DNA of 28,707 nt from Lentisphaerota bacterium. GTDB taxonomy: Bacteria > Verrucomicrobiota > Lentisphaeria > Oligosphaerales > PUNB01. The stretch is from positions 1 through 28,707 of the forward strand of contig PUNB01000262.1 of assembly GCA_003552565.1 (NCBI GenBank), in the 5' to 3' direction. Each line of letters begins with the position of its first letter. The stretch's first letter is position 1. Shown in pieces: positions 3,897-25,636 of this stretch. A program made the translations under genes and the position numbers. The notes below the pieces were generated by a model, which was given only the letters and a program-made list of their open reading frames with translations, was not told where the DNA came from and searched no databases.

Positions 3897-4082
3897 GGGC
3901 GTTTTTCTAGAGGTTATGCGGAAAGGTTGATGTTCCGATTTGTGTTGGTTTAACCATTGTCTAGAACCTTGTCTCGCACCTTGTCGGGAACAAAAAACTG
4001 AATCGAAAAAAGTGCGCGACAAAGTGTTGTAACACCCGATTCTCTCTCGGGGTGCCCGGCGCGTCGCGCCACGAACCGGCGC

Positions 4083-10984: not shown

Positions 10985-11319
10985 GTTTCGAGTCGGTATG
11001 GAATACAGGTTTCGGGTTTCAGAAAGGCTGTTTTGTACTTTCCTAGTCTCGCACCTTGTCTCGCACTTAGTCTGAAAAATGAGGAATCGACAGAAAACCA
11101 GACAAGGTGCGAGACAAAGTTTTATTTTTTTGTGCGTGTAGAGACTGCAAACACCTTTTCGCAGAGGGTCTAGCTATTAATAAGGTGTCAACTTTTAGTC
11201 AGGACTTGACACACCTGGACACTGAAACCTGAAACCACGAAGCCTCACATAAGTGAGTTTTATAATGAGATATTCGGCCGGCATTCGGACTTGGGAAACT
11301 AAAAAAAAGAAGTTATTTT

Positions 11320-12153: not shown

Positions 12154-12471
12154 ACACCTGACCGGGGCAGACGTGATTCGGCCGGGGCGTAATGTGTCAG
12201 TCATAGGAGCACGAATTTCCCACCTTTCACTGAAGCATTACTCCGAAACTGTCCATGCGCTTGCAATTACACGGATGCCAATTACTATTTCTGTTCCGGG
12301 GTATCTGGCGCCTTGCGCCGGGGGCGGGGCTTATCTGAAGCACAGTTTTGAATATTGAATGGTGAATATTGAACTTGGAATTTTTACCTGAAACCTGACA
12401 CCAGAAACCAAGCTGTTACCCATTCGTTTTGAGCAAGAGTCGCGTTTCATTCCAAACCAGCGGTGTAAAAA

Positions 12472-12678
12472 ATGATCAGCGAGAAGTTGTTATCTATCCT
12501 CGGGTGTCCGGCTTGTGAGCAGCGCCCCGCTCTTACACCGGTAAAAAAAGACGAGGGAGAATATCTGGCCTGCGAACAGTGCGGCCTGCTTTACCCGATT
12601 CGGGATGACATTCCGATTATGCTGGTTGATCAGGCGCTCCGTCCTTCCAAGGCGGCGGAGAGTTCCAAGCCTGAATAA
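12472..12678 (+). CDS. Trm112-like (DUF343/YcaR) small zinc-finger protein
   Basis: 'LLSILGCPACEQ...LACEQCGLLYPIRDDIPIMLVDQA' is the canonical Trm112p/YcaR motif. Confidence 0.75.
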   Translation: MISEKLLSILGCPACEQRPALTPVKKDEGEYLACEQCGLLYPIRDDIPIMLVDQALRPSKAAESSKPE

Positions 12679-12917
12679 TTCACGAGCCAAGATTACCGTC
12701 TGGCCACTTGCAGACTAAATAGAAAAAAAATAACATAACATGACAAAAATAAAACCACTGCGCGGACGGATTGTTCCGTCCGAATAAAATTCAAACCTTG
12801 TCCAGAACCTGAATCTATTTGGACTTTGGTTCAGGAGAAGGTTAGTTCCGTCATCCTTTGGAACGACTGTGTAATTGTTTCTAAACCGAAAACCCAAAAA
12901 CGCCAAGGAGCATAAAT

Positions 12918-13274
12918 ATGAGCACTGGTTATCATGAAGCAGGTTTAAGTCAGAAAACTCAGAATATCCATCGGGCCATCGCCAGTTTGCAGGAAGAACT
13001 GGAAGCGGTGGACTGGTATAATCAGCGCGCTGATGTGACTGAGGACGCGGAATTGAAAGCGGTTCTTGAACACAACCGCAATGAAGAGATTGAGCACGCC
13101 GGTATGCTGCTTGAATATCTCCGTCGCAATATGAGCGAGTTTGACGAGCAATTGTCGACCTACCTGTTTTCCACTCTGCCGATCACCCAGATCGAAGAGG
13201 CTGAAGAGGGCGGGGAAAATGACGCTCCCGGCGACGTCTCCAGCTCTGGCTTGGGCATTGGGAAAATGGATTAG
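12918..13274 (+). CDS. encapsulated ferritin-like protein (EncFtn/Flp) cargo with C-terminal encapsulin targeting peptide
   Basis: 'EELEAVDWYNQRADVTEDAELKAVLEHNRNEEIEHAGMLLEYLRR' is the EncFtn di-iron motif region. The Gly-rich linker ends in 'SSGLGIGKMD', resembling the family-1 cargo-loading peptide (GSLGIGxL). Confidence 0.8.
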   Translation: MSTGYHEAGLSQKTQNIHRAIASLQEELEAVDWYNQRADVTEDAELKAVLEHNRNEEIEHAGMLLEYLRRNMSEFDEQLSTYLFSTLPITQIEEAEEGGENDAPGDVSSSGLGIGKMD

Positions 13275-13346
13275 CTCAGTTCTTGATGCCTTGGTAGTGA
13301 ACTGATTTATTGCTTTGTATTATCAAAAAACATAAGGAAATGAAAG

Positions 13347-14153
13347 ATGGATATTTTAAAAAGATCACTGGCTCCAATCACTGACAGCGCCTGGAATGAG
13401 ATTGATCAGGAAGCGGCGCGCGTTTTGAGAGGCAATCTGGCTTTTCGCGGCCTGGTGGACTTCGTCGGACCCGAGGGCTGGGAGAAGGCGGCGGTCAATC
13501 TGGGCACCATGAAAGAAGGCGGCAAGCAGCTGGTGAAAGGAGTTAACTGGGGATTACGTCAGGTTCAGCCTTTGACCGAAATCAGAGTGCCCTTTTCTCT
13601 TGATATATGGGAGTTGGACAACTTGGAACGCGGCGCCCAGGCACCCGATCTGGACGCGGTCACGCAGGCGGCTCAACAAGGAGCGGTCTTTGAGGAAACG
13701 GCTGTTCTCAACGGTTTTTCCGAGGCTCAGATCACCGGCATCGGTCAGGCGGCCGGCAAACCGATCGGCATGTCCAAGAACCCAGCCGATTGCCTCGCCG
13801 CTTTTGAAGAAGGCATCGTGGCCTTGCAGAAGCAGGGAATCAACGGTCCATACCAGCTGGTTCTGGGAACGGAAGCCTATCAAATGATAATGGCCGGTGA
13901 TGATAAAGGTTATCCTCTGCACAAGCGCGTACAGGAATTGACCGGAACCGACATCAAATGGAGTCCGGCAGTGATGCAGGCGGGGATTATTTTAAGCTGT
14001 CGCGGCGGTGATTATGTCTTCACCTGCGGCCAGGATTTTTCCATCGGCTATCATTCACATTCAACCAAGGCGGTTAATCTGTTTTTAACCGAGTCTTTTA
14101 CTTTCCAGGTTCTGGAACCCGCGGCGGCGGTCAGTATATCCTGGAAAAAGTGA
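13347..14153 (+). CDS. family-1 encapsulin nanocompartment shell protein (linocin M18-like, HK97 fold)
   Basis: Collinear similarity to the T. maritima encapsulin: 'MDILKRSLAPITDSAWNEID', 'WGLRQVQPLTEIRVPFSLDIWELDNLERG', 'GPYQLVLGTEAYQ', 'GYPLHKRVQELTG', 'GQDFSIGYHSHSTKAVNLFLTESFTFQVLEP'. Confidence 0.9.
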   Translation: MDILKRSLAPITDSAWNEIDQEAARVLRGNLAFRGLVDFVGPEGWEKAAVNLGTMKEGGKQLVKGVNWGLRQVQPLTEIRVPFSLDIWELDNLERGAQAPDLDAVTQAAQQGAVFEETAVLNGFSEAQITGIGQAAGKPIGMSKNPADCLAAFEEGIVALQKQGINGPYQLVLGTEAYQMIMAGDDKGYPLHKRVQELTGTDIKWSPAVMQAGIILSCRGGDYVFTCGQDFSIGYHSHSTKAVNLFLTESFTFQVLEPAAAVSISWKK

Positions 14154-14215
14154 CGGTTTGGCCTGAAATAAATTGCGAGTCAAATTTGCCGCATGGCCGA
14201 ATTTGCATGCATTAA

Positions 14216-14662
14216 TCAGGCGTTTTTCTCGAGGATAATGGTGACTGGGCCGTCATTGGTCAAACTTACCCGCATATCGGCGGCGAAAATGCCAGTGGCG
14301 ACCTTCAGGCCGGTTGTGTCCTGGATGACCTGACTGAAGAGTTGATAAAGCGGGTCGGAAATTTCCGGCGGCGCCGCTTCCACAAAGCTGGGGCGGCGCC
14401 CTTTGGCACAGTCACCGTAAAGAGTGAACTGTGATACAACCATGATTTCGCCGCCGATATCCTGGACTGAACGATTCATGCGCTGCTGCTGATCCCGGAA
14501 GATCCTTAAATTGGCGCATTTGTCGGCGAGCCAGCGTGCTTCCTTTTCCGTGTCGTCATGGTGAACTCCCAGCAGAATAACCAGCCCCGGGCCGATTTCG
14601 CCGACAGTTTCATTGTCCACCTCCACTCGGGCATCCGTAACTCTCTGCACTACCGCTTTCAT
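14216..14662 (-). CDS. dtd: D-aminoacyl-tRNA deacylase
   Basis: 'MKAVVQRVTDARVEV...GPGLVILLGVHHDDTEKEARWLADKCANLRIFRD...SQFTLYGDCAKGRRPSF'. Confidence 0.9.
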   Translation of the reverse strand: MKAVVQRVTDARVEVDNETVGEIGPGLVILLGVHHDDTEKEARWLADKCANLRIFRDQQQRMNRSVQDIGGEIMVVSQFTLYGDCAKGRRPSFVEAAPPEISDPLYQLFSQVIQDTTGLKVATGIFAADMRVSLTNDGPVTIILEKNA

Positions 14663-14725
14663 TTTGTCTCTTTTCTTTTCGAGTGATTATATTCTGCGTC
14701 GGTTGTCAAGATTGTGTGAGACTTG

Positions 14726-14976
14726 GAATATATATCCTTGTCTCGAACCTTGTCTCGAACCTTGTCCCGAACCTTGTCCCTAATCCGCCTCAGGCGGATT
14801 AGGGACAAGGTTTTTTATGCCGCACCAGTCTCTCGCTCGGAGTATCAGGCTCCTCGAGCCAGCGGTCAGGCTTATGTGAAACTCAGCCTTGTCTACCTCA
14901 GGCGGATCTGGTTTTCTTTCGATTCCTCATTTTTCGGACTAAGTGCGAGACAAGGTGCGAGACAAGGTGAGCACAA
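14726..14976. repeat. composite structured element: 4x tandem 12-mer 'CCTTGTCTCGAA', a 12-bp-stem palindrome with T6, and inverted 12-mer copies at the far end
   Basis: 14736-14783 holds the tandem 12-mers. 14779-14815 is 'CCCTAATCCGCC-TCAG-GGCGGATTAGGG ACAAGGTTTTTT'. 14946-14970 is 'GTGCGAGACAAGGTGCGAGACAAGG', the inverse of the 12-mer. A 'GGCTTATGTGAAACTCAGCC' box lies at 14859-14878. Confidence 0.7.
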
Positions 14977-16724: not shown

Positions 16725-16874
16725 CGCTTGTGTGAGACTTTGTGGTTTCAGGTTTCAGTGTTCAGATGTCAGACAACAGAAACCATGCGAGACAAACTGT
16801 AGTAACGCATCCCATGGGACGCTTGTGAGTTTTTTTTAATTAATTTGCCTGTAACATGAAAGGATAAATGCTTA

Positions 16875-17519
16875 ATGTATGTCGGACGAATTGTAGCCGT
16901 CGGCCTGTCCCAGCAAGGGGCTTCGGCGGCGATGTATCGAGTCTCTTCCCGTTCCTTCCCCAATCGCCACGCAGTGATTCTCAATGAAACCGCGGCCATT
17001 GTCCCGAAACCGGGACACGAGGGGGATATTCAGAAAAACCCATATATCGCCTACAACTGTCTGCGTTTAACTGGCGAGTATGCTGTTGCCACCAACGGCA
17101 CTCAAACCGACCCTGTCTGTGAGAAACTTTCCGCCGGCCTGCCTCCGCGCGACGCTCTGGCTTCAGTGCTGCTGACCCTGGACTATGAAAAAGATGCCTA
17201 CAACACTCCCCGCATTGCCGCCGTGATTAATCGGCGCGGTGACTCCGCTTACCTAGGCATCGCGCGTCATGACGCGCTGCTGGTGCGGAAAATGGATCTC
17301 CAGCCCGGGAGGCTCTTTTATATCTGCACTTACGAGCATAACTTTCCGGATTCCAGTTTCGCGGATAATGATTTTGCCGTCAGTGATCCCCTTTCAGCTT
17401 GTGATTATTTGCTGGGGCAGGGGGTGTTCGCTGAATTTGAACGGCCGGTGACCGCGGCCTGCGCGGTGGCCGGAACCGACGGATTTTCTTTGGCGGCGCG
17501 GGAAGCGGTTTCGGGGTGA
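16875..17519 (+). CDS. purO: IMP cyclohydrolase, archaeal PurO type
   Basis: 'MYVGRIVAVG...YRVSSRSFPNR...NPYIAYNC...DALASVLLTLDYEKDAYNTPRIAAVIN...YLGIARHDALLVRK' is collinear with M. jannaschii PurO. Confidence 0.8.
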   Translation: MYVGRIVAVGLSQQGASAAMYRVSSRSFPNRHAVILNETAAIVPKPGHEGDIQKNPYIAYNCLRLTGEYAVATNGTQTDPVCEKLSAGLPPRDALASVLLTLDYEKDAYNTPRIAAVINRRGDSAYLGIARHDALLVRKMDLQPGRLFYICTYEHNFPDSSFADNDFAVSDPLSACDYLLGQGVFAEFERPVTAACAVAGTDGFSLAAREAVSG

Positions 17520-17532
17520 GAAAATATTGAGT

Positions 17533-17600
17533 TACCGCGCGGACGTATTATTACGTCCGGTATATTGGGCTACCGCGCGGACGTATTATTACGTCCGGTA
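17533..17600. repeat. two tandem 30-bp palindromic units 'TACCGCGCGGACGTATTATTACGTCCGGTA' separated by 8 bp
   Basis: Unit 1 at 17533-17562 and unit 2 at 17571-17600 are identical. Each contains the perfect palindrome CGGACGTA-ATTAT-TACGTCCG. They lie between the purO stop and the hisD start. Confidence 0.85.
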
Positions 17601-22937: not shown

Positions 22938-25493
22938 TCAACGTCGAAAATCGGGAACTCCCGGAAGCGGCTGATCACGCACGGGCTGACCGGACGGATC
23001 CACCAAGTGTGCAGTTACAAAAATTAGCAGGTTCCGTTTTTCCGACTGCTTGCCCCTGCTCCTGAAAAGCCGTCCCAGAAGCGGTATGTCACCAAGTATC
23101 GGAACCTTGTCCTCAAACTCGAACAATTCTTCACCGATCATGCCGCCAAGGACCACTGTTTCACTATCGTAAACCAGCACTTGCGCATCAACTCTGCGAC
23201 GTTCAATTATCGGCATGGACGCTCGATATGATACACCGGTTCCTGGGTCCACAGTATCCAATTCTGTATCGTAACCAAGGAATTCAACTACCTGCGGGGT
23301 TAATTGCAAGTTGATAGTATAATTGTCCGGTTCAACTTCCGGTGTCACCTCCAGAATAACCCCCATCTCCTCTGCGTCTCCGAAAACCGGGGTTGAAGGT
23401 ATTACACTCTGTATCTGACCATCATCGTCAAACGTAAGTTCAGGTTCATTCCAATCTATCGGGAAATAACGTTCAGTAACAATTCTCATCGCTGCCGGCT
23501 CACCAGAAATAGTTGTAACTTTGGGGGCGGAAAGTATATCCGCTTTGTCGGATCGCTCCAAAGCGTTCAGTACCACGTCCAGTTCAAGATTTCCCAAGAC
23601 GGCAGCCGCCGAGAGGAAGTCTCCAGTGGCGCCTGTCGGCAAGGCATCTGAAACCGTACGAACTCCCGTGGTTAAATCGGACGCGTCAATATCCAGCCGC
23701 CTTGACCCGGAGCTGCTTTCGTAAGCTGTATGCCCCTGAGCGATAGCCCACTGCATTCCCATCTCCTGCAAAGCGTTCTGTGATACTTCAACAAACTTGG
23801 CTTCAATCATCACCTGCGTCGGAGTCGCCGCCAGTTCAGGAATCAGCTCTTCAATCCGCTGAATATTTTCAGCAGTATTATAAACCACAAGCCTTCCCGT
23901 GCGAGTATCGTAACGTATGCTTGAGCCTTCAGGAAATGACACTCCAAGGTCCCGGAAATAAGCCTTCACGTCATCCGGTGACACTTCCTCTCGTTCGGCA
24001 ATATCGGTATCCATCCCCCAAGGATCGTCATCATCTCTATCGTCAGTCCGCTCCCGCCTGAAAATACCCGGAGTGATAGAGAAAAATCGGGTGTACATCT
24101 CGCCAGCCGGCAATTCACGATCAGAGATGATCACCGCCCTCGGATCGATTACATAATGCAATCCGGCGGACATGGCAACAAACCGGATCACGTCCCCGAG
24201 CGGGACATTTTCCATATTCAATGTCAAAGCACCTATGTCCTGCACTTCCTCCGGCTCGTCAAAGTCGTCGAAATCATCAAAGTCATCCCTGTCGGGACGT
24301 CGTTCCAGTCGTGGAGCTGCATCAGGGTCATCGGCCAAATTCAACACGAAATTAACTCCTTCATCGTCAGGATCGAGTTCCCGACTCTGCCTTTGCAGAT
24401 AACCAACCACCTGATGAATGGTCGCTTCTTCAAATTCTACCCGCGGAATAATTATTTCACGCAGTTTCTGCCGAATGGCGGCATCCGGCGGGGCCTCTCT
24501 CTCCACCGGCCGGCCAGGCTCTACCATTTCCTCTTCCCTCTCCAGCGGCTTCACCGGCTGCGACCAAGTCCAAGTGGTCTCCGCCAGCATCTCTTCGCGA
24601 GTGGCTATCCGCCTTTCCTCGCCTTTATCATCGACCTTTTCCGCGATGCGACGCAGATAGCGCACCGCCACTAATGAATAGGGGTCTCGATCCAGAACCT
24701 CCTCAAATTGCTCCTTCGCCTCCATATAACGGCCGTTTTCATAAAGAATCTTCGCCTGTTCTTTCAGCACATCAATGTCGAACTCACGTTCCTCTTTCTC
24801 GGGGTCAACATCCTCCGGCCTTGTACGTGTCTGAAATTCAATATCCCGTCGCTGTTCTTCAAGCCTTTCCGCCATTCTATTGAACTCATCGGCTCTTCCC
24901 GGCAAGGTTTCGGCGGCCTCGCTCAGAACGTCCTGAGCATCATCCCACCTAGCCACATCCGCAGCCTCGCGAGCCTCTCTTTTTATGGTTTGCACCCACT
25001 GATTGTAAGCATCCCCGACGGAACGCTCGGTTGCATCAATGCGATTTCTCACATCCTCATCGACGCGGCTGACATTCTGTAATATCTCCTTGGCTTCTTG
25101 ATACTTATCAATCGCTTCCTGAAACTCGTTATCACGCAGATTCCGGTTAGCCCGTCTTTGCAAATCCTTGGCTCTTTCGAGCTGCTCCTGACGACGCACC
25201 TCCTCTTCACGGGAGAGGCGTTCATGCTCAGGCGCGTCTTCATCGACTTCCACGTCGTCAGGCTCATCGACCTCCACTTCAGGATCTTCAGCGACCTCAT
25301 GCTCTTCCGGTTCTTCAGCTTCCGGAGCCGCTTCAACCTCGGCGGGTTCAGGAGCAGCGTCCCGATCAAAGTCCCAGATGTCATTGTTATCATCACCTGA
25401 TACCACACCTGGACTGAATACCAGTGCCAGCAAAAAACAAAACCCAGCCGCAACCGCTAATTCACTACGTTCAATTAAAGCATTTTTCCGCAT
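22938..25493 (-). CDS. PilQ/GspD-family secretin with long acidic coiled-coil N-terminal region
   Basis: C-terminal secretin domain 'VLVYDSETVVLGGMIGE...VPILGDIPLLGRLFRS...RNLLIFVTAHLV'. Signal peptide 'MRKNALIERSELAVAAGFCFLLALVFSPGVVSG'. GGAGG RBS lies 7 nt before the ATG at 25493 (the ORF-track start 25526 is less likely). Confidence 0.85.
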   Translation of the reverse strand: MRKNALIERSELAVAAGFCFLLALVFSPGVVSGDDNNDIWDFDRDAAPEPAEVEAAPEAEEPEEHEVAEDPEVEVDEPDDVEVDEDAPEHERLSREEEVRRQEQLERAKDLQRRANRNLRDNEFQEAIDKYQEAKEILQNVSRVDEDVRNRIDATERSVGDAYNQWVQTIKREAREAADVARWDDAQDVLSEAAETLPGRADEFNRMAERLEEQRRDIEFQTRTRPEDVDPEKEEREFDIDVLKEQAKILYENGRYMEAKEQFEEVLDRDPYSLVAVRYLRRIAEKVDDKGEERRIATREEMLAETTWTWSQPVKPLEREEEMVEPGRPVEREAPPDAAIRQKLREIIIPRVEFEEATIHQVVGYLQRQSRELDPDDEGVNFVLNLADDPDAAPRLERRPDRDDFDDFDDFDEPEEVQDIGALTLNMENVPLGDVIRFVAMSAGLHYVIDPRAVIISDRELPAGEMYTRFFSITPGIFRRERTDDRDDDDPWGMDTDIAEREEVSPDDVKAYFRDLGVSFPEGSSIRYDTRTGRLVVYNTAENIQRIEELIPELAATPTQVMIEAKFVEVSQNALQEMGMQWAIAQGHTAYESSSGSRRLDIDASDLTTGVRTVSDALPTGATGDFLSAAAVLGNLELDVVLNALERSDKADILSAPKVTTISGEPAAMRIVTERYFPIDWNEPELTFDDDGQIQSVIPSTPVFGDAEEMGVILEVTPEVEPDNYTINLQLTPQVVEFLGYDTELDTVDPGTGVSYRASMPIIERRRVDAQVLVYDSETVVLGGMIGEELFEFEDKVPILGDIPLLGRLFRSRGKQSEKRNLLIFVTAHLVDPSGQPVRDQPLPGVPDFRR

Positions 25494-25636
25494 TCTTTCG
25501 CCTCCGCAAATTAGTTTTATCTTCATTCGTTTCTGTTCAATATTATAGGCACATTTTTCGCAAAGCCGTCAATATAACGGCATTTCCTGGCTTGTCCAGT
25601 TCAAGCCAACATTTCTTTTTACTCCATTGTCAGCTA

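Follow-up and report, generated by a model that had tools for sequence, protein, structure and literature searches.

What do two small genes, one for a ferritin-like protein and one for a shell protein of the HK97 fold, specify together when they stand side by side on the chromosome of an uncultured Lentisphaerota bacterium? The pair lies at positions 12918-14153 of contig PUNB01000262.1 (assembly GCA_003552565.1), whose 28,707 nucleotides were analysed as a whole and are called the window below. We consider it highly probable that they are a chromosomal operon of two genes, encoding an iron-storage nanocompartment of the family 1 encapsulin type with EncFtn as its cargo. A preliminary description of this DNA had proposed a family 1 encapsulin/EncFtn operon of known type, and profile matches, metal ligands, the C-terminal tail, the fold and the gene order all support that proposal. 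The coordinates, lengths and 72-bp spacing that it gave agree exactly with a six-frame list of open reading frames (ORFs) and with the raw sequence, in which both genes start with ATG on the + strand and the gap between them runs from 13275 to 13346. The parts of the system on which the argument depends are as follows.

12918-13274, + strand: EncFtn cargo gene, an encapsulated ferritin-like ferroxidase of 118 amino acids (aa), of the class of ferritin-like proteins with a targeting peptide (FLP-TP), from matches to PF22277, TIGR04535 and PDB entries
12939-13172, + strand: EncFtn helical core, residues 8-85, from residue mapping on Rhodospirillum rubrum EncFtn
13194-13247, + strand: flexible acidic and Gly-Ser-Ala-Pro linker, residues 93-110, EEAEEGGENDAPGDVSSS, recognised by its composition
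13248-13271, + strand: targeting peptide GLGIGKMD at the C-terminus (residues 111-118), which includes a Lys and the LGI anchor, recognised by the motif in homologues
13347-14153, + strand: gene for the shell protein, a family 1 encapsulin of 268 aa with the HK97 fold and a predicted 60-mer assembly of triangulation number T=1, from PF04454, NF041155, AlphaFold2 and Foldseek

The cargo belongs to a defined protein family, of which more than 4,000 homologues were retrieved. It passes the cut-off of the Pfam model EncFtn-like (PF22277; E = 1e-37, 128.2 bits against 27) and that of the NCBIfam model 'encapsulin-associated ferritin-like protein' (TIGR04535; E = 1.1e-42, 144.5 bits against 125). 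It does not pass the NCBIfam models for EncB_fam and EncB (NF058679, 73.3 bits against a cut-off of 90; NF058678, 17.3 bits against 210), and we therefore class it as EncFtn and not as EncB of the Myxococcus xanthus type. The best match among solved structures is the 'Encapsulated ferritin-like protein' of PDB entries 33bf and 9rzu (E = 2.1e-30), followed by the encapsulated ferritins of Haliangium ochraceum (7oe2; E = 2.8e-28) and R. rubrum (5da5; E = 1.7e-26).

The preliminary description had also read di-iron ferroxidase motifs in this protein, and an explicit alignment of 120 database homologues with two structural references places the Glu, Glu and His ligands, the tyrosine and the entry-site glutamates where that reading expects them. 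In R. rubrum EncFtn, Glu32, Glu62 and His65 form the di-iron ferroxidase centre, close to Tyr39, and Glu31 and Glu34 make up a secondary entry site (PMC5012862). The corresponding residues of the cargo are E27, E57, H60 and Y34 at the ferroxidase centre and E26 and E29 at the entry site, and each of these six is kept in 119-120 of the 120 homologues. W33, H52, E56 and E59 were mapped in the core as well, so that all ten metal-site positions are invariant or nearly so in the alignment. By homology to 5da5 and 7oe2, the protein would form a decameric, metal-dependent ring with ferroxidase activity and with no storage cavity of its own.

Beyond the helical core, the chain ends in ...EEAEEGGENDAPGDVSSSGLGIGKMD. 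The translated ORF confirms the tail sequence and the Gly/acidic linker described earlier: seven of the 18 linker residues are acidic and nine are Gly, Ser, Ala or Pro. The published FLP-TP consensus calls for a disordered C-terminal region of 10-40 aa followed by L(F)-x-V(I)-x-x-L(I), with L-x-I(L)-x as the minimum (PMC11202242), and L112-G-I-G-K-M117 of the cargo fits it, with Met in place of Leu or Ile at the last position. The published T1 targeting consensus is DGSLGIGSLKG and the native Thermotoga maritima peptide is NTGGDLGIRK; in a docking and loading study the key contacts were made by the Leu-Gly-Ile anchor and a nearby Lys (PMC7925596). The tail is conserved in its essentials among relatives, LGIG occurring within the last 20 residues of 95 of the 120 homologues. 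Among 170 distinct related tails that bear the motif, Lys stands at +5 in 28 and Met at +6 in 24, and the commonest arrangement has a single residue after +6. GLGIGKMD is therefore a common targeting-peptide variant; the earlier view of it as a minor variant of the consensus stands, with the tail frequencies adding how often its features recur.

The two closest homologues over the core, P0123 and P0124 (87% identical there), end in GKGILS, which is not of the LGIG type. Either their targeting peptide may have diverged, or targeting may have been lost.

The shell protein is assigned with equal clarity. Over the whole of both models it matches Linocin_M18 (PF04454; E = 3.5e-78; 262.8 bits, with a cut-off of 24.3; positions 1-253 of 253) and the NCBIfam equivalog 'family 1 encapsulin nanocompartment shell protein' (NF041155; E = 4.1e-79, 265.6 bits against 100, positions 1-261 of 261). 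The single Pfam domain spans all 268 aa, and no further Pfam match was found in the protein, in keeping with a family 1 shell, which consists of the HK97 A-domain, P-domain and E-loop and lacks the additional fused domains that are typical of other encapsulin families. Its best solved match is the H. ochraceum shell (7odw; E = 2.3e-66), and the T=1 shells of mycobacteria, Brevibacterium, Klebsiella and E. coli match at E ≤ 1e-45, while the T=3 and T=4 shells of M. xanthus and Quasibacillus thermotolerans match only at E values of 1e-8 to 1e-4. The T. maritima shell (3dkt; E = 8e-56) aligns through its residues 1-262 with residues 1-263 of ours without large indels, which bears out the proposed collinearity of the two.

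Structure prediction gives the same picture. An AlphaFold2 model built from 25 homologues has a mean predicted local distance difference test score (pLDDT) of 84.9 and a predicted template modelling score (pTM) of 0.81. A Foldseek search of the PDB with this model returned T=1 family 1 shells as its top 27 matches, at template modelling (TM) scores of 0.75-0.88 and 34-45% identity, and the HK97 fold previously ascribed to the protein is thus upheld; T=3 and T=4 shells rank behind them (TM 0.67-0.76, 17-22% identity). Since the nearest relatives in both sequence and fold are all T=1, a T=1 architecture of about 24 nm is a reasonable inference by analogy. The nearest shell homologue found at all is that of locus L005, at 71% identity; the species-representative genomes yielded a sole relative, in a metagenome-assembled genome (MAG) of Candidatus Latescibacterota, at 68% identity.

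The arrangement of the two genes recurs well beyond this contig. We took 86 related loci from genome and metagenome collections and searched these and the window, 87 in all, with hidden Markov models (HMMs) of the shell and of EncFtn. The operon order is conserved: in 81 of the 87, EncFtn is the gene directly before the shell gene and lies on its strand. Of the six exceptions, four have fewer than 130 bp ahead of the shell gene. One of the loci, L087, comes from the Logan assembly of run SRR490150 and differs from window positions 12367-14765 by a single mismatch in 2399 nt; it carries the same four genes, for a Trm112p-like protein, EncFtn, the encapsulin shell and D-Tyr-tRNA deacylase (Dtd). 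This independent assembly reproduces the locus, which is therefore no assembly artefact or chimera. Both exact proteins are already present in public collections.

Each gene is preceded by a ribosome-binding site, and the remaining features around the pair can be set out with it.

12905-12910, + strand: Shine-Dalgarno sequence AAGGAG of the EncFtn gene, 7 nt ahead of the ATG, read from the raw sequence
13334-13339, + strand: Shine-Dalgarno sequence AAGGAA of the shell gene, 7 nt ahead of the ATG and inside the 72-bp spacer
13275-13346, + strand: the 72-bp spacer between cargo and shell genes, which holds the AAGGAA site, aligned with loci L001, L003 and L006
12762-12782, + strand: perfect hairpin, GCGGACGG-attgtt-CCGTCCG, downstream of the Trm112p-like gene and ahead of EncFtn
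12472-12678, upstream of EncFtn: Trm112p-like zinc-ribbon gene, 68 aa

Several observations count against the preferred reading, and we consider them together. The closest shell homologue, in L005, has no EncFtn upstream, and orphan shells in L005 and L059 show that the pairing of EncFtn with the shell is not obligatory in the clade. The spacer in the window is the longest among the loci compared. Over 72 of them its median is 0 bp, the two genes in most cases overlapping or abutting; at 72 bp, translational coupling of the two genes is therefore absent, unlike in most relatives. Neither a sigma-70-type promoter upstream of EncFtn nor an intrinsic terminator after the shell gene came up in consensus scans, and the 3' region folds no better than shuffled sequences do (z-score -0.73). 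A search for the 7-1-7 pattern of the Fur box with up to three mismatches gave four matches in the whole window and none ahead of EncFtn.

The long spacer is shared in part by the three closest relatives that bear EncFtn (L001, L003 and L006), in which it measures 57-67 bp. Alignment of these four clade members revealed no conservation in the spacer beyond the Shine-Dalgarno sequence and the ATG. No regulatory RNA structure was detected in it (fold z-score 0.00) and no terminator-like site, and an Rfam scan of the window returned tRNA only.

In the two orphan loci (L005, 2468-2785; L059, 1468-1633), the gene in front of the shell gene encodes either a CBS-domain protein or a fumarase of class II, and EncFtn is absent upstream. 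The cargo of these shells, if they have any, is encoded elsewhere.

The hairpin at 12762-12782 lacks a T-run and was therefore not called by the terminator scan. It may nevertheless act as a terminator or as an insulator against upstream transcription, which would imply that the EncFtn-shell pair has its own promoter. Hairpins of the same family, GCGGACG-N8-CGTCCG, occur twice more at 17539-17597, within a 38-bp tandem duplication (17524-17600) that sits between the IMP cyclohydrolase-like gene and hisD. The family has six strand-matches in the window against 1.1 expected, and it is probably a repetitive extragenic palindromic (REP)-like or terminator hairpin.

How, then, might the same data be explained otherwise? 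Encapsulins and phage capsid proteins share the HK97 fold, and a fold search with the shell does return HK97-fold proteins; one might accordingly suppose that the gene is a remnant or domesticated prophage major capsid gene and its ferritin-like neighbour a coincidence. A PHROG search at E ≤ 0.01 gave no match for either protein, the top matches in sequence and fold are all encapsulins and none are phage capsids, and the window, which lacks terminase, portal and protease genes, surrounds the pair with FtsY, NusB, RibH, MreC, Dtd, IspE, HisD and GlmM. A coincidental neighbour is also hard to reconcile with a pair that recurs in 81 of the 87 loci. We rejected a phage origin as effectively refuted by the zero PHROG matches and the encapsulin-only top matches, and we leave it next to no probability. 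The reading of the shell as a secreted bacteriocin derives from the historical names 'linocin M18' and 'maritimacin', labels retained by the Pfam family and by several PDB molecule names. The same PDB entries are solved icosahedral nanocompartments, the current NCBIfam name is that of an encapsulin shell, and the adjacent genes include none for export or immunity. This interpretation has been superseded by the structural literature; it deserves scarcely any credence.

The other two alternatives accept an encapsulin shell and question its relation to the cargo. EncFtn might share the shell with other cargos, or be a lesser one among them, if further proteins with targeting peptides that are encoded elsewhere in the genome, such as a DyP peroxidase, rubrerythrin or hemerythrin, were co-packaged; the role of the compartment would then be broader than iron storage. 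Multi-cargo family 1 systems do exist, as in M. xanthus, where EncA takes up EncB, EncC and EncD (PDB 8vjo, 7s8t; PMC11126975), and our view is confined to 28.7 kb of the genome. A tail of the form L-G-[IVL]-[GRK] is absent from every other window ORF of at least 50 aa, so that no second cargo was found in the window, and the architecture is the standard single-cargo EncFtn type, as seen in 81 related loci. Additional cargo is thus unlikely, though it retains a small real chance. It is also conceivable that both proteins are made and remain uncoupled, the tail ending in KMD failing to bind the shell and EncFtn acting as a free ferroxidase like the short ferritin-like proteins (s-FLPs) that have no targeting peptide. 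The terminal Asp is indeed outside the eight commonest tail-end residues, the closest core homologues P0123 and P0124 do without LGIG, and the cargo-shell spacing exceeds that of most relatives. Yet the LGI anchor and the Lys, which are the reported drivers of binding (PMC7925596), are both present, the Lys at +5 and the Met at +6 are recurrent, homologue P0122 ends in the near-identical LGIGKLD, and the linker and tail together have the architecture of an FLP-TP and not of an s-FLP. We regard such uncoupling as very improbable.

The preferred reading, a family 1 encapsulin loaded with EncFtn, suggests a mechanism whose steps are modelled on characterised homologues, from the assembly and T number of the shell through cargo loading and ferroxidase activity to the physiological role. 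The two genes would be expressed together. EncFtn, a two-helix ferritin-like protein, would assemble around Fe(II) into a decameric ring as its characterised relatives do, with di-iron centres forming across the dimer interfaces from E27, E57 and H60, with Y34 nearby. The acidic linker would present GLGIGKMD, and the LGI anchor and Lys would tether EncFtn to the inside of the shell. As in solved complexes, the peptide would be expected to dock through its LGI anchor in a hydrophobic pocket on the luminal face, at the P-domain and the N-terminal helix. Sixty HK97-fold protomers are expected to self-assemble into a T=1 icosahedron of about 24 nm that encloses the cargo. Fe(II) would then enter through the shell pores and be oxidised by EncFtn, and a ferric mineral would be laid down in the lumen, where it could sequester iron and limit Fenton chemistry.

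The setting of the operon is ordinary chromosome with housekeeping neighbours, and no phage genes were found in the window. Upstream lie genes for an MFS transporter, a glycosyltransferase, TauE, tRNA-Val, FtsY, NusB, RibH, a PLD-like protein, MreC, a TatD-like hydrolase and the Trm112p-like protein; downstream follow a convergent dtd gene and genes for an IspE-like GHMP kinase, an IMP cyclohydrolase-like protein, HisD, fumarase, a phosphoglucosamine mutase-like protein (GlmM) and a secretin.

We considered the Trm112p-like gene as a possible component of the system. In L003 (MAG contig PWOL01000216.1, 2985-3575) it stands 4 bp upstream of EncFtn, behind a gene for a metal-binding YHS-domain protein with a His-rich C-terminus. 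Its HMM matched the window and one relative, L003/L004, and none of the other 84 of the 87 loci, a negative weakened by the narrow two-sequence HMM used. With this restricted distribution the gene was rejected as a component and is taken as lineage synteny, leaving a functional link to the compartment only a slight chance. A wider version of the idea, in which this clade sets the cargo:shell stoichiometry differently or a zinc-ribbon (and YHS) accessory protein delivers metal to the compartment, is similarly remote in our estimation.

Some observations concern the window outside the operon. The secretin (22938-25526, - strand; 861 aa, with Secretin_N, Secretin and TPR domains) is only 33-34% identical to the nearest relatives in the database and is unusually isolated for a secretin of type II/IV secretion and pilus systems. 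The IMP cyclohydrolase-like gene (16875-17519, + strand) is of the PurO type (PF07826), which is best known from archaea.

The window also carries several families of short repeats. A dispersed 12-mer, CTTGTCTCG[A/C]AC, is present in 19 copies at up to two mismatches against 4.1 expected, a number that none of 100 shuffles reached. The copies form mostly short tandem arrays, largely between long ORFs (3956-4023, 11043-11118 and 14737-14966), with single sites at 16785, 22829 and 27723, and the typical layout is a + strand array followed by a - strand array 20-170 bp further on. Besides the window, the sole member of the 87 loci to contain the exact 12-mer is L087, whose DNA is that of the window itself. 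The element could be of the miniature inverted-repeat transposable element (MITE) or REP-like kind, or an array of regulator sites. Between dtd and ispE (14772-14816), two inverted arrays of the 12-mer flank a perfect 18-bp hairpin with a T-run, CCTTGTCCCTAATCCGCC-tca-GGCGGATTAGGGACAAGG-TTTTTTA, the stem of which opens with a degenerate copy of the 12-mer. Tandem arrays of two 13-mers, TAATCTTTCGCCC (2.5 copies) and AGATTAAGGCAAA (2.7 copies), are located at 581-612 and 2648-2682; they look like near reverse complements of one another and stand on either side of the MFS transporter gene and an unannotated ORF of 164 aa.

For the biology of this uncultured bacterium, the operon implies an encapsulin iron store and oxidative-stress buffer that would replace classical ferritins or work beside them. 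It also offers one more natural pair of an LGIGKM-type targeting peptide and its shell, of minor possible use in encapsulin engineering. Beyond annotation the significance is small. The locus is an ordinary member of a widespread, well-characterised and already known system, which standard pipelines would name automatically, and the systems of H. ochraceum, R. rubrum and T. maritima already allow the same questions to be asked. Its only clade-level quirks are the longer, unstructured spacer and the Trm112p-like neighbour, which is common to one relative.

Comparison with the characterised systems shows where the locus belongs. The M. xanthus system (EncA with EncB, EncC and EncD; T=3) and the Q. 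thermotolerans system (encapsulin with IMEF; T=4) are likewise family 1 and iron-mineralising, with ferritin-like cargo, and M. xanthus EncC gives a weak match to our cargo (7s8t; E = 8.1e-06); they differ in their distant shells (17-22% identity), larger particles, and several cargos or an IMEF cargo. The T. maritima system (shell 'maritimacin', 3dkt, with a ferritin-like cargo) is closer, having a collinear T=1 shell at 38-39% identity and a TM score of 0.82, and the LGI anchor of its peptide NTGGDLGIRK (PMC7925596) matches that of GLGIGK, although its tail continues as LGIRK where ours reads LGIGKMD, and the H. ochraceum shell is the closer of the two to ours.

On the cargo side, R. rubrum EncFtn (Rru_A0973, 5da5) is 60.5% identical to the core of the window protein over its own residues 14-98, and its four ferroxidase-centre and two entry-site residues are all kept; the two differ in organism and in tail sequence. 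In that system a metal-dependent decamer carries di-iron sites at its dimer interfaces, and the mineral is stored in the shell (PMC5012862). The encapsulin and EncFtn of H. ochraceum (7odw, 7oe2, 7oeu) give the best solved match for the shell and one of the top matches for the cargo. Relative to them, the linker in the window is shorter and more acidic, and the tail reads GLGIGKMD and not GSLGIGS.... The likeness is otherwise close: the shells share 45% identity at TM scores of 0.86-0.87, the cargos 50% identity over 110 alignment columns, and H. ochraceum has the same two-gene logic, its T=1 shell being paired with an FLP-TP cargo whose tail (...GSLGIGS) is of the LGIG type (PMC11202242).

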